64,000 nt of DNA from Bdellovibrionales bacterium. GTDB lineage: Bacteria > Bdellovibrionota > Bdellovibrionia > Bdellovibrionales > UBA1609. The notes beneath the pieces are model-generated. The model did not search any database and was not told where the DNA came from. It saw only the letters and a list, made by a program, of their open reading frames with translations. The stretch lies in contig JAPPLG010000016.1 in NCBI GenBank assembly GCA_028819545.1, positions 5,160 to 69,159 on the forward strand, in the 5' to 3' direction. Made by a program: the position numbers and the translations under genes. Positions 1,950 through 59,642 of the stretch are shown piece by piece. How positions within the stretch are numbered: the stretch's first letter is position 1; every line of letters starts with the position of its first letter.

Positions 1950-2627
1950 ATGTTTGTTTTTAATAGAAAGATTTACAAACCTCTTTTGGTTATTTTCGGA
2001 TTTGTTCTTTTTTCCATAGCCTCTTATGTTATTGGATACCAAGTGGGCTTTAAATCATGGGGCAAACAAATTTCAATCTCACTGGATCCTGCTCTTTCTG
2101 TCAGAGGACTGGCTTCCACTGAATCCGCCGCCCGAAGCATAGCCACTGTTTCCAATGAAGAATATACCAACCCCCAAAACTTATTTGATAAAGCTCAAAT
2201 TCTTGAAAACACCCAATCAGATAGTATTCTCTTTGTCATCGGAAACCTTCTCCATACAGATGAACAGGGTAATACATCTTTTGTGTGTAAAAATTTCTCT
2301 CAAGTACAGCTTTGGTTTGAAGCTTTAGGCTTGGCCATTAAAGGTGAAAAGGTAATTATGACAATCAATACAGATTGTACAGAAAATAAAGACCATCAAT
2401 ATATTGGTCCTTTCAGCATCCCCGCAAAAAAAATCTTAGAATCATCCATTGTTGAAAGCACATTTAGTGAGAATAATAGCGAAATTCAATTTGAGAATGT
2501 GTCTCTATCCTGGCCTAAATCGTGGGTGCTGATCAAAGCTGATTTCAAAAAAGCTGGAACATCTGACTTTTCTGTAGTTACTGAAACACCGGAAACTGAA
2601 GACGATATTTTTGTTATTGAACTTTAG
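1950..2627 (+). CDS. Hypothetical membrane-anchored protein
   Basis: 225 aa with an N-terminal TM/signal anchor (LLVIFGFVLFSIASYVIGY). Its last ~60 nt are the sequence repeated at 3894 and 4976. Confidence 0.6.
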   Translation: MFVFNRKIYKPLLVIFGFVLFSIASYVIGYQVGFKSWGKQISISLDPALSVRGLASTESAARSIATVSNEEYTNPQNLFDKAQILENTQSDSILFVIGNLLHTDEQGNTSFVCKNFSQVQLWFEALGLAIKGEKVIMTINTDCTENKDHQYIGPFSIPAKKILESSIVESTFSENNSEIQFENVSLSWPKSWVLIKADFKKAGTSDFSVVTETPETEDDIFVIEL

Positions 2628-2632
2628 TTGCT
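2568..2632 (+). repeat. Junction repeat copy 1 (native 3' end of the 1950-2627 gene)
   Basis: TTTTCTGTAGTTACTGAAACACCGGAAACTGAAGACGATATTTTTGTTATTGAACTTTA recurs at 3894-3958 and, as a shorter copy, at 4976-5015. Confidence 0.9.
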
Positions 2633-2875
2633 TTTGCTGTCTGAAGAATTTGTAAAATATACTTCAGCAATTACTTCTTTTCCAGTTTTGAGCTTTTCAT
2701 TCTTTGAAATAAACTTTCTGGGCACCACTATTTGTGATTTTGATTCTAATGACAACAAAGTGACGTTTTTACCGTCGTACTTCATCACAACGCCCTTGAT
2801 TTTAACCGGTTCTACTACAGCCGCCCAGCTGAATTGCAGTATCATACAGAACAAAACATAAATAAATATTTTCAT
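2624..2875 (-). CDS. Small secreted hypothetical protein
   Basis: 83 aa with signal peptide MKIFIYVLFCMILQFSWA. Sits immediately upstream-adjacent to the 294-aa gene on the same strand. Confidence 0.5.
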   Translation of the reverse strand: MKIFIYVLFCMILQFSWAAVVEPVKIKGVVMKYDGKNVTLLSLESKSQIVVPRKFISKNEKLKTGKEVIAEVYFTNSSDSKSN

Positions 2876-3893
2876 ATTACCTCACTCCTTTCGATGATTT
2901 GAATAATTGAATCTCAGAACGAGGAGTATCATCAGTCCATGGCAGTGTTTGAATAGGGGATTCTGACGAAGGCTTATGAATGTTTACAGATACTTGCTGA
3001 CTATTGATACAGTCATCCGCATTAGGACACCGATTGGAATCTACAGGATCGCAGTAAACTGGTATGGTTTGATTTGGAAAACTGCCTACACGACATTTTA
3101 CTTCACCTATGCAAACCGCTGGAAGCTGACACAAACCATTGCTCTGTGCAAATACAACAGGTGAAGGAGTAGAGCCAATGTATTCGCAATATGAAACACT
3201 AGGATTTGTTGCAGAAACAGTTTTCCTGCGGATAGAAGTTGAAAAATCTTCTTGTACTGCACCAGCAGGAATAGGCCACTCTAACTCCCTGAAACTACTA
3301 CGCTCTATCTCCGGTGAAACAGCATTATAAGTAAAAATCAACTCATCCAGAGACGGTTCTTCCTCTGGACTGTCAGACCAACTTTGAGCGAGTTTTTTTA
3401 ATCCCTCTGCCCCTTTTATTTGAGCAAGATGGTTTTTATAATCGTCATTATCAGGATATTTTTCAGCATTATCCATTATTGATGCTACTTCTATAATTAT
3501 CTGTTCACGTTTATAAGCTCCCTGTGAATAATCTGCTCGCGGCCTTTCCCATTTTAGGCTGGAAGGAGAAAAGCCTGAGCTTTCCACCTCATCATAAACT
3601 TCTCGCATTGTTTTGTCCGGCATATATTTTTGAGCAAATAAAAGAAATCCTCTATCACTTTTGTAAATCCCGTTCGTCAAGATCGCTTGAATTTCCTGTG
3701 GTATGAAAGCGTTTGCCGTAAACATCATGAAAGCAAGTAGAAATAAAAACAAAAAATTCATAGAAACTCCTTTTCAAATTATCAAAGAGAAAATCCCAAG
3801 ATTTTATGATAAAACGAAACACAATTTGTGTTTATAAGAATCTATAAAAACTGTACCAATGTACTGTGAAAGATCCATGATGGTCAAAACAGT
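2633..3893. mobile_element. Accessory cassette A-I (two secreted-protein genes) bounded by junction repeat copies 1 and 2
   Basis: Lies exactly between repeat copies 2568-2632 and 3894-3958. No recombinase gene inside. Confidence 0.55.
2877..3761 (-). CDS. Secreted hypothetical protein with a Cys-rich C-terminal half
   Basis: 294 aa with signal peptide MNFLFLFLLAFMMFTANA and multiple Cys in the last 100 aa. Confidence 0.6.
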   Translation of the reverse strand: MNFLFLFLLAFMMFTANAFIPQEIQAILTNGIYKSDRGFLLFAQKYMPDKTMREVYDEVESSGFSPSSLKWERPRADYSQGAYKREQIIIEVASIMDNAEKYPDNDDYKNHLAQIKGAEGLKKLAQSWSDSPEEEPSLDELIFTYNAVSPEIERSSFRELEWPIPAGAVQEDFSTSIRRKTVSATNPSVSYCEYIGSTPSPVVFAQSNGLCQLPAVCIGEVKCRVGSFPNQTIPVYCDPVDSNRCPNADDCINSQQVSVNIHKPSSESPIQTLPWTDDTPRSEIQLFKSSKGVR

Positions 3894-4068
3894 TTTTCTG
3901 TAGTCACTGAAACACCAGAAACTGAAGACGATATTTTTGTTATTGAACTTTAAGTAGTTGCTAACGAGGCTGTTTCAACATGAGTAAGAAATCCCATAGT
4001 GACTTTGCCATAGACACTGCAGATTTTTTAGCTCGTTCTTTTTCTTCAGAAGAAAATTTTTCTAAACA
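3894..4068. repeat. Junction repeat copy 2: decayed fragment of the 1950-2627 3' end fused to a decayed 3' fragment of the CADD-like gene
   Basis: 3894-3958 matches 2568-2632. 3952-4068 matches 5016-5135 with about 12 differences in ~160 nt by manual alignment, including a 1-nt deletion. It is non-coding remnant sequence. Confidence 0.85.
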
Positions 4069-4124
4069 CTAGAAAGTGTTTCTTCAACAATCTGTTTTAC
4101 ATAAGATAAAATTAGAAATTATTG

Positions 4125-4499
4125 CTATAATACTTTGGATTGAAAATTTCTCATCATACAAATTGAAGGATCGATAGAAAAACAGAAAACACTTTGTTTT
4201 TCATCTAAAAGATAATTGATTGAAAAAGAACCACTCCCAATAATATCCATTCCGATAATAGCCATATATTCTCCTGTATCAAAACAACCAACTTTGTATT
4301 TAAGCAGGGTGATGTCATTTGATAGTTTTATGTCGATATAGTGGATAGGGCATGCAACTTCACTTCCATTTGCCATTCTAACTGTCTTGGCACTATCAAC
4401 ATTTCTTAGTTCCAGATTGGCAATAGTTTTTTTATGTACAACAGTAAATGTGGCTCCAGTATCCCATAACACCTTACCTCTCTTTTTTTTTATTTTCAT
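4125..4499 (-). CDS. Retropepsin-like (clan AA) aspartic protease, possibly frameshifted at an A9 tract with an upstream ORF from 4581
   Basis: LWDTGATFTVV (catalytic DTGA) and IIGMDIIG motifs. A 35-codon ORF (4581-4474) overlaps its start and would fuse by a 1-nt shift in the A9 run at 4483-4491. Confidence 0.7.
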   Translation of the reverse strand: MKIKKKRGKVLWDTGATFTVVHKKTIANLELRNVDSAKTVRMANGSEVACPIHYIDIKLSNDITLLKYKVGCFDTGEYMAIIGMDIIGSGSFSINYLLDEKQSVFCFSIDPSICMMRNFQSKVL

Positions 4500-4607
4500 T
4501 TAGTGGATTTAACAGAGAAATTTCTGTTTCAATTTGAGTAAAAAAAGAATTTTGATGAATAGAAATAAGTTTATGTGCCATATATATTCACTTATTATTT
4601 TAATATT

Positions 4608-4856
4608 TTAAGAATTGACGTTGATTCTAGATATATATTCAATTTTATTAGTTATTTCTTGGACAAGAAAACTTCCTGGAATAAGATTATTGTCCCTTAT
4701 ATATTGTCTTGCTAGATCTTCTGTATCAAAAATATCAATAACCTTTTCATTTTGCACAACAGCAAATTTTCCTTCATTTTTTTGAATCAAAGAAGGTAGC
4801 TTAGTTTTAAAAAACTCATAATTCTTAAGCCAAGACTCTTTAGATGGACACATCAT
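4608..4856 (-). CDS. Small soluble hypothetical protein, partner of the retropepsin-like gene
   Basis: 82 aa, co-oriented and directly upstream of the protease ORF. The GKFAVVQNEKVI...SFLVQEI pattern is reminiscent of small partner proteins seen next to such proteases. That resemblance is from memory and unverified. Confidence 0.55.
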   Translation of the reverse strand: MMCPSKESWLKNYEFFKTKLPSLIQKNEGKFAVVQNEKVIDIFDTEDLARQYIRDNNLIPGSFLVQEITNKIEYISRINVNS

Positions 4857-4975
4857 AGATAAGCTTACATATAATTTTTCAACTTATCAACTGTCAAATG
4901 AATAACTCTTACAAGCCATTTCAATACTTACAGAAAGTCTAGAAAAAGATATATTTGTTTTGCTGTAATTTATAA

Positions 4976-5135
4976 AAACACCGGAAACTGAAGACGATAT
5001 TTTTGTTATTGAACTTTAAGCAGTTGCTAACGAGGCTGTTTCAACATGAGTAAGAAAATCCCATAGAGACTTTGCCATAGACACCGCAGACTTTTTAGCC
5101 CGCTCTTTTTCTTCAGAAGAAAACTTCTCCAACAA
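4976..5135. repeat. Junction repeat copy 3 (short 1950-2627 3' fragment followed by the intact 3' end of the CADD-like gene)
   Basis: AAACACCGGAAACTGAAGACGATATTTTTGTTATTGAACTTTAAGCAGTTGCTAACGAGG... The overlapping stops (CTTTAAG) reconstruct an uninterrupted convergent junction. Confidence 0.9.
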
Positions 5136-7225: not shown

Positions 7226-7248
7226 TTACATTAAGCTGTAGTCAGGGC
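7226..7248. repeat. Copy of the last 23 nt of the ETF-QO gene (direct repeat of 8478-8500)
   Basis: TTACATTAAGCTGTAGTCAGGGC vs TTACATGAGGCTGTAGTCAGGGC, 21/23 identical. The two copies bracket the ATPase gene. Confidence 0.65.
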
Positions 7249-7259
7249 TGAAAATTCTA

Positions 7260-8441
7260 TTATTTGAGAATTCTGCGGTACTTTTCTATTGTTTTTACAT
7301 AAGGTTCAACCCAAACATGTTCTCCAATTTTTCTACTTCTTTTTTCATAGAGAGAACAGATAATCACCGGAGTTTTTGGAAATTCTCTTTGAAAAGCTTT
7401 AATAGAATGTTTGTTTTTTATTTGCTTTCCAGATTTACATTCAATAGCCATAATCGGCTTTTTTCCAGAATGAATAAGAAAATCTATTTCCCACTTGTCT
7501 TTACGCCAGCACGAAATTTGATGTGCATACTCCATATAATCACGAACTCTAATAAGCTCATTGGCGACCCATGTCTCAAATAAAAAACCCAATTCCTCTG
7601 TTGCAGGTTTATCCGTCAACCTATTCTGAAGCGCCCTTACAATACCACAGTCAAAAAAATAAAATTTAGGACGAGCTTTTTTTCTCTCACTTCGATCAAA
7701 CGGCCAAATAAAACGACCCATCAAAGTATCCTCCAGAATAGAATAGTGCTCCTTCACTGTATTCATATGAACAGAGCATTCTCTGGAAATATTAGAAAAC
7801 TCAATCATTTGTCCATTACACTGAGCCGCTACATCTAAAAAACGGTAGAATGAACTTAAATTTCTAACCAAAGATTCTGCTTTTATCTCTTCTTTAATAT
7901 AGGTAGTGACATAACTTTTTAACTGCCTCACAACACGTTTATTTTGTTTTTGAGCTACCAAAGAAGAAATCAAAGGCAAAGATCCAAAAAGAAGAACATT
8001 ATGAATATTAAAATCTTTTCCTAACTCTTTTATAGTCAATGGATGCAGTTTTAAATCTAAAGCTCTACCGCCAAGTAAGTTAGACTTTCCTCTTTTTAAT
8101 TTCCGAGCACTTGAACCAGAAAGAAAAAATTGAAGATTTTTTTGGTCTATTCCCATTTGAACATAATCCAAAATAGATGGTACTTTTTGAATTTCATCAA
8201 TAATCACTTGAGAACCTGTTTTTAAAGCAGATATTTCTTCCCAAAACATCTGAGGGTGAGTTATGAAATCCTTCTCTAATTGAGGATCTAATAAATCATA
8301 AAACACAGCGCTTTTGCATTGACTCAGAAGATGTGTTTTACCTGTCATGCGAGGACCAAAAAGAAAACAAGAAGATGAGTAATCCTTCATATTCAGCTCT
8401 CTTTTATATATTATATTGTTATTTACGCTCATAAATAACAA
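7260..8441 (-). CDS. COG1373-type AAA ATPase with a C-terminal PD-(D/E)xK-like (DUF4143-type) module; true start may be 8432 or 8390
   Basis: Walker A GPRMTGKTHLL, Walker B VIIDEIQK, LSGSSARKLKRGKSNLLGGRA, and C-terminal WEIDFLI...AIECKSGK (D...ExK). Paralogous to 22471-23610 and 42862-44013. Confidence 0.85.
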   Translation of the reverse strand: MLFMSVNNNIIYKRELNMKDYSSSCFLFGPRMTGKTHLLSQCKSAVFYDLLDPQLEKDFITHPQMFWEEISALKTGSQVIIDEIQKVPSILDYVQMGIDQKNLQFFLSGSSARKLKRGKSNLLGGRALDLKLHPLTIKELGKDFNIHNVLLFGSLPLISSLVAQKQNKRVVRQLKSYVTTYIKEEIKAESLVRNLSSFYRFLDVAAQCNGQMIEFSNISRECSVHMNTVKEHYSILEDTLMGRFIWPFDRSERKKARPKFYFFDCGIVRALQNRLTDKPATEELGFLFETWVANELIRVRDYMEYAHQISCWRKDKWEIDFLIHSGKKPIMAIECKSGKQIKNKHSIKAFQREFPKTPVIICSLYEKRSRKIGEHVWVEPYVKTIEKYRRILK

Positions 8442-8452
8442 TATAATATATA
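8405..8452. promoter_or_regulatory. Perfect 21-bp-arm palindrome (6-nt spacer) at the 5' end of ATPase gene B
   Basis: TATATATTATATTGTTATTTA-cgctca-TAAATAACAATATAATATATA. It lies upstream of the likely start at 8390. Confidence 0.6.
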
Positions 8453-8477
8453 AATACTAGAATTGTAAAGCTCTTTT

Positions 8478-10079
8478 TTACATGAGGCTGTAGTCAGGGC
8501 CGGAGCCTCCCTCTCTTGGATTCCACCAGGGGCCTAAAACATCTGTAGCTTTGCAGTCCACACAGTTGGGTGCATTCACAATAAATTTTCCATTCTTTCT
8601 TTCATACACTCCAGCCGGACAAAAATTAATATAAAAATCCTGAACAGCTTCCGGAAGATCTTTGGAAACTTCCAAGTGAGAAGGAATATCATCTCTTGTT
8701 TTATTTCCGGAAAGATAAACAGCATCTGCTTTTGAATCAGAAGAAGTTTGATCTTTATTCAACAATCTTTTTTTCTGATGATCCGAAAGAAGTTTCTTCG
8801 GATTTAAATTTCCAGGAAAATAACCACCGCTGAGTATCATCAAACCCGCTTTGATAAATCCTATAATCTTTGCTTCCACCTGCAAAGTTCTTAAAACATT
8901 TCTCACCTTATACAAATCTTTACCAATAACAGATTTCTTCTTAATCACATCTTCAAAAGAAGCTGTTATGTTCCCCTGTTTTTTCTGAACTAAAAACTCA
9001 GCAGATGAAATCCCTGATAACATCGCATAATGAATACCTTTTAAAGAAGGGACGTTTACCAGCCCTGCCGCATCCCCCAATATAAAAACTCCTTCATCAT
9101 AAAGGCGGTCCGGAATACTATAAAAACCTCCTTCGGGAATCACCTTAGCCCCCCACTCCAAGCACTCTCCCCCTTCTAATATTTTTTTAAAAAGAGGATG
9201 CTCTTTCATCTCCTGAAATTTTTTATTTAAATTCCACTTGTTGGATGGATGATCCATCCCCGCCACCAAGCCAATGGAAATATTATTATTGGATAAAGGA
9301 TAGAGAAAGCTTCCTCCAAAACCTTCCAAAGGATACCCCACAGTATGGATGACATTTTTTGGAAGTTCTTTGACTTTCCATATCTCTTTTACCCCTAAAG
9401 CATATTGATCCGGATAATGAGAAGAAATATTTTTCCATTTCAACCAGGCTTGTGAAAGATTTCCCCTTACTCCATCTGCTAAAAAAATATTTTCAGCTAA
9501 AATATTCACAGGCTCCTGATACTGAGAAGTTTTTTCTCCATTTCTATCCAAACCGGAAGGTGTTGTTTGAATACCGATCACCTGACCTTTTTCTACAATC
9601 AGTTTATGAGCCGGAGTGCCCGGAAAAACATCCACACCCAACTCTTCTGCTTTTTTTCCAAGCCAGCGAACAACCTCACATAAAGAGGCTGTAAAGAAAC
9701 CCTTATTTCGCATCGTAGGAGGGGCAGGTATTCTGTATTGATTTTTTTTCGTCAGAAAATACATCTTTTCACTTTTCACAGATTGGCAAAAAGGCCAATC
9801 CTTGGATGTCATCTGAGGAAATAATTTTTTAAAAGCAACAGGATTGATAATAGAGCCGGAAAGGGAATGTCCTCCCAAACGTCCTGCTTTCTCTATCACC
9901 CCAATTTGCAAATCCGGAAGCAGTTGTTTTAAACGTATAGCTCCGGCTAAAGAAGCAGGGCCTGCGCCCACAAACAAAGCAGAAAAATTAAGAACTTCCC
10001 CTGAAGGACGTCCTTCAACAATTCTCTGATCCAAAGAATATTTTAATTGATAATCCTTTGGTATAAAACCTGAACCCAT
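8478..10079 (-). CDS. Electron-transfer flavoprotein:ubiquinone oxidoreductase (ETF-QO)
   Basis: 533 aa with an N-terminal FAD fold VGAGPASLAGAI and a C-terminal 4Fe-4S region FCPAGVYE...NAPNCVDCKATD. Confidence 0.9.
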   Translation of the reverse strand: MGSGFIPKDYQLKYSLDQRIVEGRPSGEVLNFSALFVGAGPASLAGAIRLKQLLPDLQIGVIEKAGRLGGHSLSGSIINPVAFKKLFPQMTSKDWPFCQSVKSEKMYFLTKKNQYRIPAPPTMRNKGFFTASLCEVVRWLGKKAEELGVDVFPGTPAHKLIVEKGQVIGIQTTPSGLDRNGEKTSQYQEPVNILAENIFLADGVRGNLSQAWLKWKNISSHYPDQYALGVKEIWKVKELPKNVIHTVGYPLEGFGGSFLYPLSNNNISIGLVAGMDHPSNKWNLNKKFQEMKEHPLFKKILEGGECLEWGAKVIPEGGFYSIPDRLYDEGVFILGDAAGLVNVPSLKGIHYAMLSGISSAEFLVQKKQGNITASFEDVIKKKSVIGKDLYKVRNVLRTLQVEAKIIGFIKAGLMILSGGYFPGNLNPKKLLSDHQKKRLLNKDQTSSDSKADAVYLSGNKTRDDIPSHLEVSKDLPEAVQDFYINFCPAGVYERKNGKFIVNAPNCVDCKATDVLGPWWNPREGGSGPDYSLM

Positions 10080-13446: not shown

Positions 13447-15895
13447 TTGGTTAAATGAATTTATTTCCCTTTCAGACCTTCAACCGCAGGACTTAGCTCA
13501 ACTGCTGAATGAAAGAGGCTTGGAAGTGGAAGCTTTATCCTCTGAGAAATTAGATCATGTGGTTATCGGTCAGATCACCAAAATTTACCCTCATCCTAAT
13601 GCTGATAAACTTCAAATATGCCATGTAAAAAAAGATAAAGACCAGGCTCCCCTATCTATAGTATGTGGAGCAAAAAATCCAAAAACTGGAGACAAAGTGG
13701 TTCTCTGTTTGGAAGGGGCGGTTCTTCCTGGAAATTTTAAAATTCAGGAAAGAAAAATTCGAGGAGAACTCAGTCAGGGAATACTTGCTTCCAAAAAAGA
13801 ACTTGGAATCTCTTCTGAAGACGACGGGGGTATTTTCATTTTACCCACATCTGCTCCCATTGGAAGCAGACTGGATGAATACTTAAAAACAAATGACACT
13901 ATTTTAGACGTATTTATTCCTCCCAACCGGGTGGATTTAATGAGCCACATTGGACTGGCACGGGAGCTTTCAAGCTTATTGGACAAACCTTTTCGCTTCC
14001 CTTTTGAACCTTATCATCATAAATCAAACACTTCCAACTTAGGAATTCCCAAAGGGCAAATGAAATATTCCAAAAGCCCTAAACTTCCTTTTGTTCCTTA
14101 CAAAAATTCTTTTAATGTCAAAGTATATGAAACTGATATTTGCCCCTATTACAGCGGACAAATGATGAAAGACGTACAAATCGGCCCCTCCCCCTACTGG
14201 CTTAAAAAAAGATTGGAATTGTTGGGTGTCAATTCTGTGAACAACATTGTTGATATCACCACCTGGATTTTACTGGAATGGGGCCAGCCTCTTCATGCCT
14301 TCGACTTGGACACTTTAGAAGGAGGCATCCACGTCAAAAAAGCAAAGTCCAAAGATCAAATGCTGGCTTTAAATGAAGATCAACTGACATTTCGAGGCGA
14401 TGAATTAGTCATTCGCGATGATAAAAAAAATCTGGCTTTAGCAGGTGTCATTGGCGGAAAAAGCAGTGCTATTTCTGATAAAACAAAAAATATTTTTATT
14501 GAATCCGCTGTATTTGCTCCTTATGACGTTCGACGTACTGCCAGGAGACTTGGCTTAAATACAGCATCCTCCTTTCAGTTTTCAAGAGGTGTCTTTCCCC
14601 ACACATCAATGCTGGCTCTACAAAGAGCCTGCTCACTGATCCAACAAGTTGCAGGAGGCTCTTTACAGGGAAGTCCTTACGAAGAAGGATCTTTTTCATT
14701 TGCACAAAAATCCATTACTATCAACCAAGAACAACTCAATGAACGTCTAGGGTATGAAGTTCCTCTGAATGAATTTACCGATTGGATGAAAAAAATGAAC
14801 TCCAAAGTGACAAAAAGATTTAGCAACATAAAAGTCACTCCTCCTTATTACAGAAAAGATGTAAATATTAAAGAAGATCTTATTGAAGAGTGGGCCAGGC
14901 TGAAGGGTTATGATTTTGTGCCGAAAGAGCTTCCGGTCTTTGCTCCTCAAAAATCTTTAAACAATAAGGAATTGAACTTTCTTGAGCGGATCAAACATAC
15001 TGTTAAAGAGCAAGGATATTATCAGGCTATTAATTATAGTTTTGTAGATCATACACTGCATAGTGAATTTTTAGGTGAAAAACCTGTTGCAGATATACCT
15101 CTTGGCCCTCCTATTTTTCTCACTAACCCCATCACTCAGGATTTGAACAGTCTTCGCCAGAGTTTGCTCCCCGGGCTTTTTCAAAATTTACTTTTTAATA
15201 TGCGGCATGGAGAAGATTTCGGACGGCTTTTCGAACAAGGGATCAGTTTTTTTAAAACAGGAAATAGGTTTGAAGAAAAACAGTATTTATCTTTTATGGT
15301 GTGGGGGCAAAAAAAAGACATATGGAATTCCAATCCACGTCCAACTCTTTTTGATTTGAAAAGCTCTATAGACAATTTATTAACATTGATTCAGGCTCCT
15401 GATTGGACTTGGACGGATTTTGAAGGTTCATTTCCATTTTTACATACAAAAAGACGCCTTTTACTAAAAATACAGGGGCAAACAGTGGGTTTTATTGGAG
15501 CTATCAACCCTATGTTGTCAGATCAAAATAAAATTCGAGGTGATATCTCGATGGGGGAGCTAAATCTATCTTTACTCTTGAATATTCCAAAAACAGAGTT
15601 CAAGTTCCAAAAACCTTCCCTCTTACCTTCTGTAAAAAGAGATATCTCCCTTCTCATCCCTAATGAGCAAAATGTAGAAGAAATTTTAAATTTTATGAAA
15701 AGTCATGCTCCTGCAGAATTCCGTCAAATCTCTCTTGTTGATTATTATGAAGGGGTTCAGAAGGGATTTCGATCTGTTTCTTTCCGTTTTATCATTCAAG
15801 GTTCTGATAAAACCCTCTCTGAAAAGCAAATCAGCTCCCTTCAACAGCCTATGGTAAAGGCTCTGTTAAAAAAATATCCTGTTCAGATTCGATAA
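13424..15895 (+). CDS. pheT: Phenylalanine-tRNA ligase beta subunit
   Basis: 823 aa with an N-terminal FNWLNEF and tRNA-binding domain (HPNADKL), plus B3/4, B5 and C-terminal FDX-ACB-like regions. Overlaps the pheS stop. Confidence 0.95.
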   Translation: MKMLYSFNWLNEFISLSDLQPQDLAQLLNERGLEVEALSSEKLDHVVIGQITKIYPHPNADKLQICHVKKDKDQAPLSIVCGAKNPKTGDKVVLCLEGAVLPGNFKIQERKIRGELSQGILASKKELGISSEDDGGIFILPTSAPIGSRLDEYLKTNDTILDVFIPPNRVDLMSHIGLARELSSLLDKPFRFPFEPYHHKSNTSNLGIPKGQMKYSKSPKLPFVPYKNSFNVKVYETDICPYYSGQMMKDVQIGPSPYWLKKRLELLGVNSVNNIVDITTWILLEWGQPLHAFDLDTLEGGIHVKKAKSKDQMLALNEDQLTFRGDELVIRDDKKNLALAGVIGGKSSAISDKTKNIFIESAVFAPYDVRRTARRLGLNTASSFQFSRGVFPHTSMLALQRACSLIQQVAGGSLQGSPYEEGSFSFAQKSITINQEQLNERLGYEVPLNEFTDWMKKMNSKVTKRFSNIKVTPPYYRKDVNIKEDLIEEWARLKGYDFVPKELPVFAPQKSLNNKELNFLERIKHTVKEQGYYQAINYSFVDHTLHSEFLGEKPVADIPLGPPIFLTNPITQDLNSLRQSLLPGLFQNLLFNMRHGEDFGRLFEQGISFFKTGNRFEEKQYLSFMVWGQKKDIWNSNPRPTLFDLKSSIDNLLTLIQAPDWTWTDFEGSFPFLHTKRRLLLKIQGQTVGFIGAINPMLSDQNKIRGDISMGELNLSLLLNIPKTEFKFQKPSLLPSVKRDISLLIPNEQNVEEILNFMKSHAPAEFRQISLVDYYEGVQKGFRSVSFRFIIQGSDKTLSEKQISSLQQPMVKALLKKYPVQIR

Positions 15896-15896
15896 A
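15833..15896 (+). repeat. Native pheT terminus: 64-bp sequence repeated perfectly at 23638-23701
   Basis: AGCTCCCTTCAACAGCCTATGGTAAAGGCTCTGTTAAAAAAATATCCTGTTCAGATTCGATAAA is identical at both positions. A diverged third copy lies at 22007-22053. Confidence 0.95.
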
Positions 15897-15960
15897 CCAC
15901 AAGCCATTCTTGTACGTAAAAGTTATTCTGAACTTGTTTCAGAATCCAGTGCATAGGAAA

Positions 15961-16065
15961 TACTTTGTATAAGCGGCTCAAAGCTCAAACATGCGTTTGC
16001 CACAGAACAACTTTCAGTCGTTCTGTGATCAAATCCGAACTCATTTGAGCCGCTTATACAAAGTA
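15961..16065. repeat. IR-flanked hairpin-core element, copy 1 (core in reverse orientation)
   Basis: 22-bp perfect IRs TACTTTGTATAAGCGGCTCAAA / TTTGAGCCGCTTATACAAAGTA flank a 61-nt core at 15983-16043. Confidence 0.9.
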
Positions 16066-16272
16066 TGTCCCTGCAAAGACAGGAGGCCAGCTTATATGCT
16101 ATGTAAAGGCTTGTTCTGTAAATTCCACCTAATATTACTCTATACATATAAAAGTTCTGTTAAAAACAAAGTAATTGAAAAATTTACACTTTTCTAAACA
16201 TCCTCTGTCAGTTTTATGAAGATTATGGTATAAAAACAAATCCATAACGTTGCTAAAGAGGATGTATTTTAC

Positions 16273-19200
16273 ATGAATACCCTGATTAAAAGTGTGTATT
16301 TAAAAAGCTGTACCCATTTTTTGTTTGTTTTCTTTTTTACACTTCCATCTCAATCTTTAGAGGAAACTTTCAATCTTTCACGCCCCTTCACAGTAACACA
16401 ATCTAGTTATCGACCAAATACTTTAGAAGAAAGCTTATATTACATGGAACTTTATGAGTTTCTTTCTAAAAATAAACATGCATTATCACTTTTAGAGTCT
16501 GCTCGAAAAGGCGGTGTACACTACAATTCTGCTCAATCAGAATTCAACAGATATTTATCAAACCCAGTATCTAATTTGAGAGAAGGTTTTGATTTGATAA
16601 ACAGAAATACTCATTTGAAGGCCAAAGCTCAGATAGGGGCTAAAATTTCAAATGCAGATATTGGATTATCCGCTGAAGTAGATTTAAAACGCCTTGGAAA
16701 TGACATATTAAATAGCTTGAGTAGTAAAGAATACAATCAAAAAGTTACAGACACTGCCCAGTTTTATACAAGAGAGATTTATGCGTGCTTAGAAAATAAT
16801 AATCAATGCTCTATAAATGCTCAAGTTCATCAAATACAAGCCTTGAAAGCCATACGATTCCATTTTCACGATTTTCCACAAGACAAAGATCAAGAAGGAA
16901 ATCGTTTAAACTTTGAAGAAAAATCCCAATATGCTTCTCCAGCACAAATAGAAATGGCAACTACTCTTTTTAATACTCATCAGCTACGAAGTATCTCAAC
17001 ACAAAATGAACAGAACACAGAAGAAATAATAAACGCCGTGAATACAAATACAGAGAGTGCTCAACAAATATCTCAGAAAGAAAAAGAGGAAATAATAACA
17101 GCAATAAATAAACATACAAAAAATATACAAGAGTCAGCTCTTATAGAAATGGAAAGGCTAGAACATCTAAGAAGAGAAAATATGAGACAAAACGATCCAG
17201 ATTATATGAATAGAGACCCAATTGTTCTGGCTACAAATAATAGTATTCAATCATGGGAAAAAGAAAAAGAACAAATCGCATCAGAGCTAGAGCAAGGCTC
17301 CATCACACAGGAAGAATACAGTAAAGAAATAGAAAACATTGATCGTACAATAAAAGAAAAACAGATAGATATTCAAGTTTATGAATTTAAAAAACACATA
17401 CAAAACGGAATAGCATGGGCGAATGCTGTAGAAGCAACTGGAAGAGTATTAGGAGCTCCAGAAGAGATCATCCAATTAAGCCGTGCAGGCTCAGCCAGCA
17501 TGCAAACAATCGGTGCTATAGGATCTATGTTTATAGCAGGATCCATAGACCCCACAGGGCTGACTTTAGCCCTTAATGGTGTTTCAATGCTTATCACAGC
17601 AATTTCAAATAATCCTAACTCAGAACAAATAATGATAGAACTGCTTGATGGCTTAAGAAAAAGACAAATACAAATTCTAAATAAACTTAATGAGATAGAC
17701 TTTAAAGTTGAAGAAATTCAACTCAAAGTGAATCATATTATTGAAATACTCCAAATGAATCATAATCAAATAACAGAAAAATTAGATCGAATTACAGATG
17801 ATCTGCAAAGAATTGAAAGTGAAATGATACTTGCAATAACAGAAGCAAAGTCCACTACAATGAAAGAGTCCCAAAAAAGAGGAGCTTTTTTTACTGATGA
17901 CGGCAGGGTGGTATTGGATGTATTAGAAAATTGGGAAAGACCTCATTTGAATGAAGTTATATCTCAATGTAAACACTATAAAGATCAATACGATAAAACT
18001 GGAAATATTAGATTTTACGACGACTATAATTGGTGTATTGATAAAGCTAGAAACCAACTCTTCATGATACAAGAAAGTTTGTCTGATATGTATCAAAAAT
18101 CCAGACACCGTTTTGGATCAGACACTTATATTGTGGAACAAAGTATTAATAAACTGAGCATTGAACAAGTTATTGATGAATGGAATAAATTAGTAGAAGA
18201 CCGAATTGGGATTTTCTCATCTATACACCCTTGGTTGAATCAACAATATTCAAAATATATGGCAAGCGACAGAAGATTCGGAGGCTTGTGGGCGGAAAGC
18301 CAGCCTCAGTGGGATGAATACAGACAGTTTTTAAACCGCATAAGAGAGGTGAATATTAAACATCCCTTATTTTATGATGAAGTTTTATCAGTATATGCAC
18401 CTTTAACAGAAAAACTTCCACTCCCCAAAAATCTCAGTTTTATCACAGAATCTAACATCACAGACTATAAAGATGCTCACCTGACTGAAATGTGCCAAAA
18501 TCTGAAACATATTGAAGATTTGTCTCAATACAATAGAGACCACCTCCAAAGAGCATGGCTGGTTTACCTTTATCTATCTGATCAATTGAAAAGGCAATTA
18601 AATAATCTAATGGAGAAACATATTGATCAATTAATAGAAAGACACGAAGAGCAAAGTAATAGCTTTGTTAACACTCCCGCCCTAAAAGAGCCAGACTGTA
18701 ACTGCAGTAGTAATTATGCACAAACAGAAGCAAAATTTTTCCAATATATATCCAGCCAAAAACAAACAGATATTTTTAGATACATTCAAAATCAAGGATA
18801 CAATATACATGATTTTATGAATATAAATCCTGAAGAAACTGCTCGAAAAGCCAGCAGGCGCCCTCATATAACCAACCCCTATCTTCTTCAAGAAGGATTT
18901 TTCAAAACTGTTCAAACTGGATGTGGAATGACAAGTAAAGGCCAGAGAAAAGACGTGGCCGATTTAAATCAACCCAAACAAGCAGAATTATTTGAAAAAA
19001 CACTGGAAGAAGTGCGAAGAGGATCACAAGGTGGCTGCTGGTTTATTGATCAATACGGTCTTTTTGGACAAACAGGCCAAAAAATACAATTAAGTCAACA
19101 GACAGGGCCTTATGAGTTTGAAGGTAGAGCTTTGGAAACAATGTGCCCCATTTTCGTTGTGAAGAAAACAGAAGGAACTATGAAAGATGAAGTGCAAAAG

Positions 19201-20349
19201 AGAGCTATCTGTTTAGAAACAAAAATACACAAGCTTGAAACCATATCAACACTGGATAATCTAGTTTTTGAAAATCTGTATGATTGGCCTGAAAGCCTCC
19301 CCATTGGAAAAGATTTAAAATTTATTGAAGAATCCCGTAATAAAATTTTTCATAATGAAAAACAAATTGATATTAATGAGCCTGCAATTTACGTATTCTT
19401 TAGGCAAAAAACTATGAAAGAAAACCCTGTTTATCATACAAAGCACAGCAGTTCTTTTATAAACTATAATTCAGCTAATAACACAACACCCAAAGAAGGA
19501 GGCCTTTTTACACTAAGTCATTATAAAATAGCTTATGGCTATTCCCGACAGCAAAGTGAAATAGTAGATTCTCCGCACTATAGAACTCCTGATTCTCCAG
19601 AGTACATTGGTAATATGACTTTGCAGAATCGAAATGGCAATACCATTTCATTTGGAAAATATAATGGTATTATTGAAGATAATACATATCAACAGGTGGA
19701 AACAGCTACTCAAAATAATTACCCAATCAGAATAGACACTCAATGGATTCGAGGAAATTTCGATAAACAAAATTATTGGACCATTAAAGATAATCTAGAT
19801 TATGAAAATACGGACAGCCATGGAATATGCCTTAAAAAAGCTTGTTTGGAGTATGAAGAAATAAAAGAGGCAGATAGAGAAGCCTGGATTCAAACAGCCG
19901 CTCAACACATAAGACAACTACAAGGTTTTTTAAACACTGATATTAAGAGATGGATCAACAAAGCCAATCTTGAAAATGATGACAATACTCCAAAACTGCA
20001 TATGTTGCTGCCAAAAAGTGCACTGGTTTTAGATACAATGGCTAGAGCTGGATACGGACAGTCTTTAGAAACACAGCCCGATTTATTAAATATAGTTGAA
20101 GAAATAAAATCATTAAAAGAAAAAATAAACACTCAAAATACAGAACAAATATTAAAAATTATTCAAAGTTTAAGAGATTTAAACGCTAATCAAGGTATTC
20201 CCTCTCTGCCTATTCAACCGATAGTACAAGAGGTGCCTGTCGGACTGGGAGACACCAAAAGCCGACATCAGGCCTTAAATATTATATTGAACAGAAATTA
20301 TCTCAGCCCAAGAGAATGTCGCTATTTAAAAAGAAGAGAACAACAATGA
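16273..20349 (+). CDS. Giant secreted coiled-coil protein of unknown function
   Basis: 1358 aa with an N-terminal signal-like segment and long charged heptad-like regions. A ~45-aa Gly/Ala-rich hydrophobic segment is encoded around 17479-17612. Confidence 0.75.
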   Translation: MNTLIKSVYLKSCTHFLFVFFFTLPSQSLEETFNLSRPFTVTQSSYRPNTLEESLYYMELYEFLSKNKHALSLLESARKGGVHYNSAQSEFNRYLSNPVSNLREGFDLINRNTHLKAKAQIGAKISNADIGLSAEVDLKRLGNDILNSLSSKEYNQKVTDTAQFYTREIYACLENNNQCSINAQVHQIQALKAIRFHFHDFPQDKDQEGNRLNFEEKSQYASPAQIEMATTLFNTHQLRSISTQNEQNTEEIINAVNTNTESAQQISQKEKEEIITAINKHTKNIQESALIEMERLEHLRRENMRQNDPDYMNRDPIVLATNNSIQSWEKEKEQIASELEQGSITQEEYSKEIENIDRTIKEKQIDIQVYEFKKHIQNGIAWANAVEATGRVLGAPEEIIQLSRAGSASMQTIGAIGSMFIAGSIDPTGLTLALNGVSMLITAISNNPNSEQIMIELLDGLRKRQIQILNKLNEIDFKVEEIQLKVNHIIEILQMNHNQITEKLDRITDDLQRIESEMILAITEAKSTTMKESQKRGAFFTDDGRVVLDVLENWERPHLNEVISQCKHYKDQYDKTGNIRFYDDYNWCIDKARNQLFMIQESLSDMYQKSRHRFGSDTYIVEQSINKLSIEQVIDEWNKLVEDRIGIFSSIHPWLNQQYSKYMASDRRFGGLWAESQPQWDEYRQFLNRIREVNIKHPLFYDEVLSVYAPLTEKLPLPKNLSFITESNITDYKDAHLTEMCQNLKHIEDLSQYNRDHLQRAWLVYLYLSDQLKRQLNNLMEKHIDQLIERHEEQSNSFVNTPALKEPDCNCSSNYAQTEAKFFQYISSQKQTDIFRYIQNQGYNIHDFMNINPEETARKASRRPHITNPYLLQEGFFKTVQTGCGMTSKGQRKDVADLNQPKQAELFEKTLEEVRRGSQGGCWFIDQYGLFGQTGQKIQLSQQTGPYEFEGRALETMCPIFVVKKTEGTMKDEVQKRAICLETKIHKLETISTLDNLVFENLYDWPESLPIGKDLKFIEESRNKIFHNEKQIDINEPAIYVFFRQKTMKENPVYHTKHSSSFINYNSANNTTPKEGGLFTLSHYKIAYGYSRQQSEIVDSPHYRTPDSPEYIGNMTLQNRNGNTISFGKYNGIIEDNTYQQVETATQNNYPIRIDTQWIRGNFDKQNYWTIKDNLDYENTDSHGICLKKACLEYEEIKEADREAWIQTAAQHIRQLQGFLNTDIKRWINKANLENDDNTPKLHMLLPKSALVLDTMARAGYGQSLETQPDLLNIVEEIKSLKEKINTQNTEQILKIIQSLRDLNANQGIPSLPIQPIVQEVPVGLGDTKSRHQALNIILNRNYLSPRECRYLKRREQQ

Positions 20350-21980
20350 AAATTTTAATTTACTTCATAATCACTTTAGGTCTTATAAACTGCAGTCAAG
20401 GGCTTGCTACCGATGAACCTTCGAAAACTCCCGCTCTTTCCGAACAACTTGAAGAAACCACAGAAGAGCCAATAAACTCACTTAAAACACAAGTGTTTAC
20501 TTTTGACCAAATCAAAGCTATGACTCCCTCTGAAATAACAATCCGAATAGGCAAAGATAAATCTATTCCTCATTTTAAAGATTTTGAAAACTGGCCATTA
20601 TACGAGTTAAACACACAACAGTTGGGAAGACTATTTTATCAAATTATTCTACACGGATATCTTGGTAATGTCACACCTGAACAAATTCACTCTATAAGAC
20701 CAGAATCAATAAACAGAATAGACTATATTATAAGATGCCTCTCCCCTGAGCAAACAAAAGCTATGACTCCAAAACAAATTTCGAGAGTTTGGACATTTGA
20801 TTTTACTCCAGAACAAGTTGCACAGCTTAATGCCAGTCAAATAAACTCTTTATCCAGCAATGATCTCACTGCTGAAAAAGTACATGTCATCTCTCCTGAA
20901 ACTATCACAGAAATAGGTCACTATAGCATACCTTTTGATCGATTAACACGCGCTCAAGTGGAAGCCGTCACCCCTGAACAAATCTCTTATGTAGATGAAT
21001 ATGGACTTCCTGGGGATGGAATTTCAAAGTTTACAGTCGAACAAATCCCATGGCTGACTCCTGAACAAATTTCAGCTCATCCTATCGAAGTCATTCAATT
21101 TCTAAAACCAGAACAATTAGCGGCCATGTCTCACGAACAATTACAAGCTATCTCTATAGAAAAATCTTACGAGTTCAAAGACCGCCACTTGAGAGCTTTA
21201 TCCTTTAGCCAGCTTTTACTATTTGAGGAAAATCATAAGATCGATACAATTATAGGCTTTTCAGCTAACGGAAGACAGTTTTTCCAACAAACAAACCCTA
21301 AAGATTATCCACAGTATGAATACTATATGCAGTTTATTTTTCCAAATGACTTTAAACATGTCTCTTATACACAGGCTTTAAGTTTTTCTCACAATTTACT
21401 GGCAGTGTTAAGCCCTGAGAGAATCAAGTGGATGCCTTATTATGCCAAAGTACTAACCCCTCAGTTGATTCAAAAAGATGCTACTGAGCCAGATAAGTGG
21501 TTGATCACAAAAGAGCAGTTTCAAGCTATTCCTGTAGAGCAGATACCAGATTTGAGTTTAGAATTTCTTGAAGCCATGACTAATGAGCAAGTTTATTGGT
21601 TTACTTTTGAGCAGCTCGCTCACCTGAATAGAGATCAATTAAAAAGACTTTTTACTTCTGGATTTAGTGAACGCCCGCCTATGCACGTCCCAAAAGTATT
21701 TAGCATTATACATATTGCTGAACAAACAGAAGAGGGAGATGAGTGGCTAAGAGGCCCTATGAAGGAAGTGATTATGGAACATATGGAAATAGAATGTGCA
21801 CAATTTTATGGTTGCAGAGAGAGATGGATGAAATTTCCTGATCTTCCACAAAGCATGAAAGATAGTTACTTTTCCCCTCCTCCTCAGCCTGAAGAACCTA
21901 TCTTAACTTATTTGCCACATCTAATCGACTGTCAGCAACTTAGCAATCTTATAACCAATAGTAAAAATAGATCAAAATGA
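20346..21980 (+). CDS. Lipoprotein with degenerate ~10-aa TPEQI-type repeats
   Basis: Probable start is MKILIYFIITLGLINC (lipobox) at 20346, overlapping the upstream stop as ATGA. Many copies of [LF]TPEQ[IV]xx[LIM]. Confidence 0.7.
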   Translation: MKILIYFIITLGLINCSQGLATDEPSKTPALSEQLEETTEEPINSLKTQVFTFDQIKAMTPSEITIRIGKDKSIPHFKDFENWPLYELNTQQLGRLFYQIILHGYLGNVTPEQIHSIRPESINRIDYIIRCLSPEQTKAMTPKQISRVWTFDFTPEQVAQLNASQINSLSSNDLTAEKVHVISPETITEIGHYSIPFDRLTRAQVEAVTPEQISYVDEYGLPGDGISKFTVEQIPWLTPEQISAHPIEVIQFLKPEQLAAMSHEQLQAISIEKSYEFKDRHLRALSFSQLLLFEENHKIDTIIGFSANGRQFFQQTNPKDYPQYEYYMQFIFPNDFKHVSYTQALSFSHNLLAVLSPERIKWMPYYAKVLTPQLIQKDATEPDKWLITKEQFQAIPVEQIPDLSLEFLEAMTNEQVYWFTFEQLAHLNRDQLKRLFTSGFSERPPMHVPKVFSIIHIAEQTEEGDEWLRGPMKEVIMEHMEIECAQFYGCRERWMKFPDLPQSMKDSYFSPPPQPEEPILTYLPHLIDCQQLSNLITNSKNRSK

Positions 21981-22006
21981 AAATTTTAATTTACTTCATA
22001 ATTGAT

Positions 22007-22117
22007 GCTGGTGAAAGCTCTGTTAAACAAATATCCTGTTCAGATTCGATAAACCACAAGCCATTCTTGTACGTAAAGGTTATTCTGAACTTGTTTCAGA
22101 ATCCAGTGCATAGGAAA
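22007..22117 (+). repeat. Diverged internal copy of the pheT terminus plus downstream left-end module
   Basis: 22007-22053 aligns to 15850-15896 with several substitutions. 22054 onward is near-identical to 15897 onward. Confidence 0.85.
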
Positions 22118-22224
22118 TACTTTGTATAAGCGGCTCAAATGAGTTCGGATTTGATCACAGAACGACTGAAAGTTGTTCTGTGGGCAAAACGCATTTTTGA
22201 GCTTTGAGCCGCTTATACAAAGTA
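22118..22224. repeat. IR-flanked hairpin-core element, copy 2 (core in forward orientation, inverted relative to copy 1)
   Basis: Same 22-bp IRs as copy 1. The core at 22140-22202 equals the reverse complement of 15983-16043, differing only by two 1-nt indels and one substitution (61 vs 63 nt). Confidence 0.9.
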
Positions 22225-22403
22225 TTTCCCTGCTTCAACACTTCCTTCGGTTGACACTTCATCACTTCGCTCCGAACTTGATCCGGAATCCAGTCGTACT
22301 TGCAGACATTCGATCAGCAGTTTCGGTTGACACCTACACTGCCTCGCCCCCTGCAAAAGCAGGGGTCCAGCTTACATGTAAAGGCTTACTCCATAGACTC
22401 CAC

Positions 22404-22429
22404 TTAACATTACTCATGAGTAATGTTAA
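22404..22429. promoter_or_regulatory. Perfect 13+13 bp palindrome upstream of ATPase gene C
   Basis: TTAACATTACTCA|TGAGTAATGTTAA, 42 nt upstream of ATG 22471. TTGACA at 22436-22441 follows. Confidence 0.55.
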
Positions 22430-22470
22430 CTATACTTGACATTACTCATATCTCATATTACTCTCTTTTC

Positions 22471-23610
22471 ATGGTTGAAAAGCGTTATTTATTTTCCCAC
22501 ATTCAAAAAGATTTAAAATCCAAAATGGTTTTTATCGGCGGAGCCAGACAAGTCGGTAAAACCACCTTGGCCCTTAAATATTTAAAACCTTCTGACCCCA
22601 AACATCCAGCTTATCTTAATTGGGATATTTCTTCTCATCAGGAGAATATTATCAAAAATCAAATTCCACTGAAATTTAAAACAATCGTTTTTGATGAAAT
22701 ACATAAATACGTAAAATGGAGAAATTTTATGAAGGGCCTCTATGATGAACACCATAGAACTCATTCTTTTTTAGTGACAGGGTCTGCCCGCTTGGATTTT
22801 TTTTCAAAAGGAGGTGACTCCCTTTTGGGAAGATACCACTATTACCGCTTGCATCCGTTTTCCTTATTCGAAATCAATAAAAATCCAACTCGAAAAGATT
22901 TAGAGCAACTGCTCACATTCGGAGGGTTTCCAGAGCCTTTTTCAAAACAATCCAAAACATTTTCAAAAAGATGGTTTCGAGAAAGAAGAAAAAGGGTGAT
23001 CCAAGAAGATATTAGAGATTTGCAAAAAATTAAAGAAATTTCCTATATCGATCTTCTGATAGAAGCTCTTCCAAGCCGAGTTGCTTCTCCTTTATCAATT
23101 CGCTCTATAAAAGAAGATCTACAGGTCAGCCACCAATCTATCGAAAACTGGATACAAATATTGGAAAACCTTTACATGATCTTCAGAATACCCCCTTACG
23201 GCTCCCCTCAAATCCGAGCTGTAAAAAAAGAACAAAAACTGTACTTTTTTGATTGGTCGCACATCTTGGATGAAAATATTAAATTTGAAAACTTAGTAGC
23301 CAGTCACCTGCTCAAATACTGCCATTACCACGAAGATATTAATGGAGATGATATGGAATTGAGGTTTTTAAGAGATACAGACAAACGAGAAGTAGATTTT
23401 GTGGTTTTAAAAAACAAAAAACCACTATTTGCCGTCGAATGCAAAGCAGGAGAAAGAGCTCTATCCCCCCATCTCAAGTATTTTAAAGAAAGAACCCCTA
23501 TTCCTTTATGGTTTCAAGTGCATAGAGGAAAAAAAGACTATGGAGACGAAAAAACAACAGGAAGAGTTTTACCATTCACCACATTTTCTAAAGATCACCT
23601 CAAGTTATAA
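22471..23610 (+). CDS. COG1373-type AAA ATPase with a C-terminal PD-(D/E)xK-like (DUF4143-type) module
   Basis: Walker A GGARQVGKTTL, Walker B VFDEIHK, and C-terminal REVDFVV...AVECKAGE. The start MVEKRYL at 22471 is preferred over the ORF-track start at 22423, which lies inside the palindrome. Confidence 0.85.
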   Translation: MVEKRYLFSHIQKDLKSKMVFIGGARQVGKTTLALKYLKPSDPKHPAYLNWDISSHQENIIKNQIPLKFKTIVFDEIHKYVKWRNFMKGLYDEHHRTHSFLVTGSARLDFFSKGGDSLLGRYHYYRLHPFSLFEINKNPTRKDLEQLLTFGGFPEPFSKQSKTFSKRWFRERRKRVIQEDIRDLQKIKEISYIDLLIEALPSRVASPLSIRSIKEDLQVSHQSIENWIQILENLYMIFRIPPYGSPQIRAVKKEQKLYFFDWSHILDENIKFENLVASHLLKYCHYHEDINGDDMELRFLRDTDKREVDFVVLKNKKPLFAVECKAGERALSPHLKYFKERTPIPLWFQVHRGKKDYGDEKTTGRVLPFTTFSKDHLKL

Positions 23611-23637
23611 CACATACCAAGCTCCAATAGAGCCAAA

Positions 23638-23701
23638 AGCTCCCTTCAACAGCCTATGGTAAAGGCTCTGTTAAAAAAATATCCTGTTCAGATTCGATAA
23701 A
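23638..23701 (+). repeat. Perfect 64-bp copy of the pheT 3' end, right boundary of the composite insertion
   Basis: Identical to 15833-15896. It is followed by unrelated sequence leading into the ihfA-like gene. Confidence 0.95.
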
Positions 23702-44100: not shown

Positions 44101-44164
44101 AGGATGTTTTTCTCCCAAGTCAAACTCTGGTTCAAGTTCCTTCACTTCAACCCAAAGTGTTTTA
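44101..44164 (+). repeat. Duplicate of the phosphatase gene 3' end (right boundary of cassette D)
   Basis: See 42791-42853. The stop is TAA here and TAG in the native copy. Confidence 0.92.
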
Positions 44165-46932: not shown

Positions 46933-47162
46933 TAGGACTGGATTCCGGCCGGATGCATGACTGATTCCTGTGTTCATGGTTAATAACTGTGCTTTTGGAT
47001 TTTTTGCAAGCATTCGCTCACACTTTGCATAGGCTCTCTTCACTCAGAAAATCGTCCAGATTTTCTGCCTTGTGCTGAATACTTTCGTATTCAACACAAG
47101 TCGTTCGTTCAATTCGAATCCTGCCCCGATAAAAAAGAGAGGATCTATGATCCTCATCCTTT

Positions 47163-47645: not shown

Positions 47646-47717
47646 ATGGGGTGGCAGGATTCGAACCTGCGCATGACAGAATCAAAATCTGTTGGCTTAC
47701 CACTTGCCGACACCCCA
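47646..47717 (-). tRNA. tRNA-Gln (anticodon UUG), CCA not encoded
   Basis: Reverse complement: TGGGGTGTCGGCAAGTGGTAAGCCAACAGATTTTGATTCTGTCATGCGCAGGTTCGAATCCTGCCACCCCA. It folds as a cloverleaf, with anticodon loop TTTTGAT and T-loop TTCGAAT. Confidence 0.9.
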
Positions 47718-59620: not shown

Positions 59621-59642
59621 TTCAAATCGCCCCTATACATCT

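Follow-up and report, generated by a model that had tools for sequence, protein, structure and literature searches.

Inverted cores in two copies of a palindromic intergenic repeat family from an uncultured Bdellovibrionales bacterium

The Correia elements (CREE) of Neisseria consist of ~26-bp terminal inverted repeats around a conserved core, and they occur in length classes that include internally deleted short forms as well as singles with a partial core, their ends reading TA (PMC2649163). REPINs are extragenic hairpins of ~100–120 nt, built from two inverted arms and a spacer, that show compensatory changes and are found in tandem clusters that include their flanks (PMC3116915). The palindromic element described here appears closest to Correia/CREE in its architecture and also resembles REPINs and MITEs; its family is a previously undescribed repeat of a known bacterial type that bears a rearrangement of a known kind. 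The flip and flop forms of parvovirus ITRs, like the hairpins of poxvirus telomeres, result from terminal hairpin replication of linear genomes. They share with the present element an asymmetric interior of a long palindrome that exists in two mutually reverse-complementary forms, but the palindrome here is internal to a chromosome. Another precedent is the small inversion at plastid hairpins, a type to which the names of Kelchner and Wendel (in 1996) are reportedly tied. Such inversions are documented in plastid non-coding DNA, without a dedicated recombinase, and typically span 4–50 bp (PMC12371153); as in the present case, the loop between short inverted repeats is reverse-complemented between homologues while the flanks remain collinear, but here the loop is longer (61–63 bp), lies on a bacterial chromosome and sits inside a member of a repeat family. 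Inverted repeats (22–27 bp here) on either side of a segment that occurs in two orientations upstream of genes are also seen in invertons such as fimS and the invertible promoters of Bacteroides; unlike in those systems, the segment described here contains no promoter detectable by consensus scan, no invertase is encoded nearby, and the family is dispersed, with other members that do not lie upstream of genes.

The DNA analysed (hereafter the window) is a 64-kb stretch, positions 5160–69159 of ENA scaffold ROBB21-1_SAMN13943215_METAG-scaffold_906, labelled at NCBI as MAG: Bdellovibrionales bacterium; the genome is known from one metagenome sample. The initial annotation had reported a 61–63-nt core inverted between perfect 22-bp inverted repeats in two copies of a duplicated segment, and this is borne out for the two elements concerned, c1 (15956–16070) and c2 (22113–22229). 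The 22-mer TACTTTGTATAAGCGGCTCAAA occurs exactly at four sites, two flanking the core of c1 (15961–15982 on the + strand and 16044–16065 on the − strand) and two flanking that of c2 (22118–22139, + strand; 22203–22224, − strand), while zero matches to it are expected in shuffled sequence. The true length of the arms is 27 nt (GGAAATAC...), with complementarity of 100% in c2 (22113–22139 and 22203–22229) and of 96%, or one mismatch, in c1 (15956–15982 and 16044–16070). The reverse complement of the c1 core (15983–16043) is identical to the c2 core (22140–22202) in 60 of 63 aligned columns, the differences being two 1-nt indels and one G/T substitution; aligned directly the two cores reach only 57%, and each core compared with its own reverse complement only 57–58%. 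Inversion of the core is therefore unambiguous, and the observed inversion of the segment between the repeats is real. On the + strand the core of c1 is in the orientation here called flop and that of c2 in the orientation called flip. With arms that are perfect inverted repeats, turning round the core alone leaves the same sequence as turning round the entire element.

The initial annotation had further placed the inversion after the duplication, and we accept an inversion between the repeats since the copies diverged, "since the duplication" being taken to mean since the last common ancestor of the two segments, X1 and X2, in which the elements lie. Its statement that the flanks are collinear holds on the left, where 131 nt (15852–15982 versus 22009–22139) align with 4 mismatches; on the right it holds only in part, as 9 matching bases are followed by a ~115-nt extra block in copy 2 (22230–22345) and then by ~72 nt at 76%. 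As DNA, c1 is predicted to form a hairpin of −37.5 kcal/mol (z = −10.7) and c2 one of −44.2 kcal/mol (z = −11.8), and the long stem is predicted to form upon transcription in either orientation. The opposite orientations are also apparent in scores against a covariance model of the element: c1 scores 111 bits on the − strand versus 54 on the + strand, and c2 scores 112 bits on the + strand.

The element had initially been considered by itself. A repeat search and the covariance model (R1, built from five full copies) instead place c1 and c2 in a dispersed palindromic repeat family, which in the window comprises five full copies at three loci and, at a fourth, a derivative of 68 nt and a half copy; the two methods recover exactly these members there and no others. 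The three further full copies, t1 (47168–47277), t2 (47352–47461) and t3 (47536–47645), all with cores in the flip orientation on the + strand, occupy 47159–47645 within a tandem array of 184-nt units (2.6–3 units, 95% matches, spanning 47125–47676) that abuts the 3' end of a tRNA-Gln gene (47646–47717, − strand). The short derivative (59408–59475, − strand), which scores 34.7 bits on the − strand, has most of the core deleted, and the half copy is found near 59575–59625. Members of the family other than c1 and c2 lie between or downstream of convergent genes, or in the tandem array beside the tRNA gene.

All copies have a common fold that consists of an outer stem, an asymmetric internal loop, an inner stem of 11–12 bp and an apical loop of 3–4 nt, and pairing is kept after two-sided changes in 10 of the 42 consensus pairs. 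The arms of c1 and c2 are identical and their cores 95% identical, as against ~80–85% identity to the t copies. The arms of t3, the last unit of the tRNA-Gln array and the sole unit there with matching arms, differ from those of c1 and c2 at ~35% of positions, yet they are complementary to each other at 19 of 20; t1 and t2 have hybrid arms, the left of the t3 type and the right of the c type, and the short derivative carries a third arm variant, again co-varying. Between c2 and t3 the stems have diverged at 23 of 69 positions (the arms at 15 of 43) and the internal loops at 4 of 36 (Fisher p = 0.018), so that the internal loops are about three times more conserved than the stems, most clearly at GAGTTCGGATTTGATCACAG. 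Such conservation implies some sequence-specific constraint on the family, and orientation may matter if the function of the loops is strand-specific. Taken as members of this family, c1 and c2 are most likely paralogous copies of a lineage-specific, ~105–117-bp palindromic intergenic repeat of this uncultured Bdellovibrionales bacterium.

In RNA folding the flip strand of c1, c2 and t3 is ~10 kcal/mol better than the flop strand owing to a G-U-rich helix, and this helix is without covariation support because its columns are invariant; the predicted stability hints at a role at the RNA level. A scan of the entire window with Rfam 15 at the gathering threshold returns only the tRNA-Gln, and permissive Rfam scans return only generic miRNA-hairpin matches (35 bits versus a threshold of 63 bits), with no ribozyme or cis element. 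The exact core pattern has no matches in JGI metagenomes (searched with two patterns), GTDB species representatives or IMG/VR, and no homologues were found in ~130 kb of DNA from relatives, either with R1 (L006, L010, L011 and L013–L016) or with word-7 blastn (L006 and L010–L013). A coding role for the element was also considered and rejected: a 35-codon frame with a ribosome-binding site and ATG does run through the core of t1, but c2 is in a different frame, the indels are not multiples of three, and no frame is conserved when the copies are compared by eye.

As in CREE and NEMIS, inverted arms surround a short, conserved, non-coding core, the copies are intergenic, their transcripts would fold into a long hairpin, a shortened form exists alongside a half copy, and the ends read TA; terminal inverted repeats around a short non-coding core and multiple dispersed copies with deletion derivatives are likewise what is found in MITE- and Correia-like elements generally. 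The ends here read TA...TA, TA being itself palindromic, and the palindrome continues into the flanks (GGAAA/TTTCC) with no boundary that can be fixed. Unlike CREE, the family has no sequence similarity to the Neisseria elements, resides in a Bdellovibrionales host and shows no detectable promoter halves, and the IHF consensus (WATCAANNNNTTR) is absent from core and arms by inspection; moreover, the arms here differ strongly between copies and co-vary within a copy. With REPINs it shares the ~100-nt hairpin, the compensatory stem changes and the tandem clusters including flanks. However, conservation in REPINs is highest in the arms and the spacer varies, whereas in the present family it is the core that is conserved and the arms that vary, and on this criterion membership of the REPINs fails. 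No GTAG/CGTC-tagged REP palindrome was found inside the arms, and no window protein matches RAYT or Y1_Tnp. The element was also compared with integron attC sites and rejected as one, the R''/L''...L'/R' boxes (RYYYAAC...GTTRRRY) being absent from the arms and no IntI integrase being encoded in the window.

The native gene order around the two elements is pheS-pheT-ihfA-merR-polA, and the window has an insertion of 7.7 kb between pheT and ihfA. Its limits are marked by two copies of the pheT 3' end, 64/64 nt identical between 15833–15896 and 23638–23701 (+ strand); the latter copy, directly upstream of ihfA, forms the right boundary, and a partial third copy is present at 22009–22053. Downstream of pheT come, in turn, X1, two genes whose products look secreted, the pheT remnant, X2, an AAA_14/DUF4143 ATPase gene, the pheT 3' copy and ihfA. 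Segment X1 (15852–16140, + strand) begins with the final 44 nt of pheT, which are followed by a spacer of 65 nt containing a small hairpin (15926–15949), by c1 and by ~75 nt similar to the upstream region of the ATPase gene; segment X2 (22009–22415, + strand) consists of the pheT 3' remnant, the spacer, c2, the ~115-nt block, which is related to repeats in the relative L015, and the shared ~72 nt. X1 and X2 are homologous over ~290 nt and bracket a 5.9-kb block with two genes (16273–21980, + strand) for predicted secreted proteins, one of 1358/1342 aa with no Pfam domain and one of 554/544 aa with ALTTAQ repeats. The ATPase gene (22423–23610, + strand) likely has its true start at 22469 (379 aa).

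Right after the stop codon of the 544-aa gene, the opening ~25 nt of that gene (ATGAAAATTTTAATTTACTTCATAA) recur, fused to the pheT remnant (21975–22002 versus 20343–20371); the recurrence may have been left by a past rearrangement or by a paralogue since lost. The smaller hairpin in the spacer belongs to a repeat of the TTCCGGACTTGATCCGGAATCCAGTCGTA type, which is found at 15926–15949, 22083–22106 and 22270–22298 and is common to L015 (9759 and 9878), where it makes up tandem units of ~98 nt that lie between pheT and the ATPase gene; compensatory changes are found in its stem as well (TTCTGAA...TTCAGAA versus TTCCGGA...TCCGGAA).

In L015, which is syntenic with the window at 84–86% nucleotide identity, the order is pheT-ATPase-pheT'-ihfA, without the gene pair and without the hairpin; L016, from another sample and ~85% identical, has this same arrangement, likewise without gene pair or hairpin. 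Presence of the element thus differs at the orthologous pheT-ATPase spacer, where it is found here and is absent from both L015 and L016; these belong to a different species, and loss and gain of the element are not separable from the comparison. In the more distant relative L006, whose PheT is 76% identical, three unrelated genes occupy the site downstream of pheT. Since the insertions differ among the window, L015/L016 and L006, the site is a hot spot. The ATPase insertion is old, and X1 and X2 are probably best explained as a duplication left behind when the 5.9-kb block was later inserted by a Campbell-type or duplicative event. What had been annotated as duplicated modules is accordingly described better as such an insertion of a gene pair at a hot spot, the relative L015 being without the pair.

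Several other features of the region were observed. Whereas the pheT 3' copy of L015 (11159–11231) matches the pheT end of that genome at only 86%, the copy here matches the true end of pheT at 100%, which suggests that the repeats of this lineage have recently undergone gene conversion. Among relatives carrying the ATPase gene, only L015 has a 3'-end duplication of the target gene around it; L010, L011, L013 and L014 have none. Across the window, cassette-like insertions directly 3' of host genes are bracketed by duplicates of the host gene 3' end (2584–5132, 7236–8505, 15833–23701 and 42787–44164), and this holds for 3 of the 3 AAA_14/DUF4143 ATPase genes, the bracketing ends being those of ETF-QO (GCTGTAGTCAGGGC at 8487 and 7236), pheT (64 nt, 100%) and Metallophos (67 nt, 94%); at the fourth bracketed site three 3'-end copies of the gene at 1950–2627 surround unrelated small genes. 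The slot downstream of ETF-QO holds a different, 442-aa gene in L015. The segment of the window from ~29540 to 57520, ending at BatD (57497), is inverted relative to L015 17109–21140, where BatD follows directly after lnt on the opposite strand; this arrangement indicates a probable ~28-kb inversion or rearrangement relative to L015, with one breakpoint near a PIN-domain toxin-antitoxin pair at ~29.8–30.5 kb.

The region upstream of the ATPase gene contains a palindrome of its own, AACATTACTCATGAGTAATGTT, which is perfect, lies at 22406–22427, ~65 nt upstream of the ATPase start, and is followed 32 nt downstream by a half site, GACATTACTCAT. This operator is conserved in six relative loci (L010–L015), of which 0/6 have the hairpin element, an absence that in L010, L011 and L013–L015 was also found by covariance-model search. 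The operator region (22404–22460 in the window; ~9936 in L010, L011, L013, L014 and L015) accompanies closely related ATPase genes in differing genomic contexts, and the palindrome probably serves as an operator for autoregulation and moves together with the ATPase gene. A conserved place for the hairpin within an ATPase cassette was considered and rejected, as all of L010–L015 keep the operator and all are without the hairpin. A literature search on DUF4143 biology returned nothing on mobility.

Support for the two orientations was sought in an independent assembly, the Logan contigs of run SRR10996925 (k=31), which are identical to the window but broken at repeats. One contig starts at 16037 with GAACTCA, the right arm and the flank specific to copy 1, and another at 22200 with AGC, the right arm and the flank specific to copy 2; both orientation-specific right-hand junctions are therefore present in the reads. 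A further contig ends at 22058, 31 nt from the SNP at 22028, and k-mer sharing between the two copies explains the break points in full. There is no extra branch at the arm boundary, where assembly would have pruned rare variants, and the contig boundaries fit one dominant orientation per locus. On the left, 62 nt separate the first base of the core from the closest SNP that tells the copies apart, and the pairing of each left flank (true pheT or pheT remnant) with a core orientation has the ENA scaffold as its sole source. The junction between the end of gene A2 and the pheT remnant is found in Logan contig L009 as well.

The reading we favour, and consider somewhat better than an even bet as a whole, is that c1 and c2 are paralogous copies of the repeat that were duplicated along with the X segments, after which the core of one copy was flipped by its own arms. 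The X segments would have been duplicated when the two-gene block of 5.9 kb was inserted between pheT and the resident ATPase gene; the element would have been co-duplicated with X, and a single arm-to-arm exchange would then have flipped one core. Co-duplication is the most economical account because the c1 and c2 arms are identical, their cores are 95% identical and their flanks are homologous. The flip may have occurred by intramolecular recombination or, more likely, by replication template switching or hairpin-mediated strand exchange between the perfect arms; template switching mediated by the inverted repeats was one of the two options offered in the initial annotation and is the one preferred here. 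Template switching or strand exchange would need no dedicated enzyme and is the process behind the small loop inversions at plastid hairpins; it would also tend to keep both arms of a copy identical, which fits the concerted evolution of arms in the family. Most likely the flip was a single historical event that was neutral or nearly so. We infer that the family itself is mobile or duplicative in nature; no transposase, target-site duplication or same-species pair of empty and filled sites that would prove mobility was found.

The other option raised initially was an invertase-type regulatory switch, in which a site-specific invertase flips the 61–63-bp core and so switches the downstream gene, that for the 1358-aa protein at locus 1 or that for the ATPase at locus 2. 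The geometry is what such a programmed inverton calls for, with perfect inverted repeats around a segment present in both orientations upstream of genes. A loop of 61 bp is very short, however, and tight for the synapsis of two duplex recombination sites. Size alone does not exclude switching, since most read-defined invertons are short (<300 nt; PMC11602134). A consensus scan found no sigma-70-like promoter and no intrinsic terminator in the core in either orientation at either locus (non-sigma-70 promoters fall outside the coverage of the scan), and the Pfam-annotated genes of the 64-kb window include no invertase, integrase or transposase, so that the search for an invertase suggested initially comes out negative within the window. 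The ATPase operator and the proximal upstream region are kept in six relative loci that all lack the element, an expression switch has no obvious role at the other copies of the family (near convergent genes and in the tRNA-side array), and the start points of the Logan contigs agree with a single dominant orientation at each locus. A programmed inverton is thus very unlikely, and the suggestion of an invertase-type switch is not upheld. An alternative with a different kind of movement is that the whole element was mobile: a MITE-like copy could have been excised and reinserted, or X1 and X2 could each have received a copy of their own, at one and the same site but in opposite orientations. 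The family is dispersed and includes derivatives and half copies, L015 and L016 have no element in the orthologous intergenic region, and the arms end TA...TA, as at the TA target sites of Correia elements; all of this would agree with such a history. It requires two insertions at an identical position, or else precise excision followed by reinsertion, and co-duplication is more economical given that c1 and c2 are each other's closest relatives and share the 131-nt left flank; in addition, the palindrome runs past the putative TA into the shared flank, leaving no clear boundary or target duplication, and no transposase was seen in the window. Movement of the whole element is unlikely.

A function carried by one strand of the element is a further alternative, either as a cis-acting RNA (a UTR stabiliser, an RNase III site or a terminator-like hairpin) or as an attC-like folded single-stranded DNA site, a flip then inactivating or re-targeting it. 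What speaks for this are the covarying stems and the loops conserved about three times better than them, the ~10 kcal/mol advantage of the flip RNA strand in three copies, the hybrid arms of t1 and t2, which look as if an exchange had taken place within the core, and the position of copies at insertion hot spots (downstream of pheT and beside a tRNA gene). Yet Rfam yields no match for the element, not so much as a weak one among the ribozymes and known cis elements; no U-tract was found; attC R''/R' boxes (RYYYAAC/GTTRRRY, sought by eye) are absent, as is an integrase from the window; the X duplication has its ends beyond the hairpin, which was therefore not the crossover site; other cassette-like insertions in the window have no hairpin; and the G-U-rich helix responsible for the RNA stability has invariant columns and no support from covariation. 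We regard a strand-specific function as about equally unlikely as movement of the whole element. Its boldest form, in which the element would be a functional, strand-specific structured nucleic acid and arm-driven flipping would serve as a recombinase-free toggle of a cis RNA or single-stranded DNA signal for the neighbouring cassette-like modules, is a long shot. Finally, the opposite cores could be an artefact of assembly or of a strain mixture, two haplotypes having been joined or a repeat mis-threaded, with module A and c1 in reality a ~6.16-kb circle or a strain-specific molecule. The k=31 Logan assembly does break at the left part of X and at the arm repeats, linkage of left flank and core needs a span of at least 63 nt, for which the ENA scaffold is the only source, and L015 shows the arrangement without module A. 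Against this, the cores are distinct (two indels and one substitution) and each is joined to its own right flank in an independent assembly, the junction from gene A2 to the pheT remnant recurs in L009, and any alternative threading would still leave two homologous elements with opposite cores, only the map being changed. An artefact is therefore the least probable of these explanations, and very improbable in absolute terms, and duplication of the repeat with X followed by a flip of one core between its own arms remains the preferred account.

These results have a bearing on prediction of invertons from sequence alone, where perfect inverted repeats around an inverted segment upstream of genes may denote a flipped repeat element. 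They also provide a clean bacterial case of a hairpin-loop flip between paralogous copies. For the organism, they add a new palindromic repeat family to an uncultured lineage of predatory bacteria, one that is unusual in that the core is more conserved than the arms; and if both states occurred at one locus, the element would be an example of invertase-independent switching.
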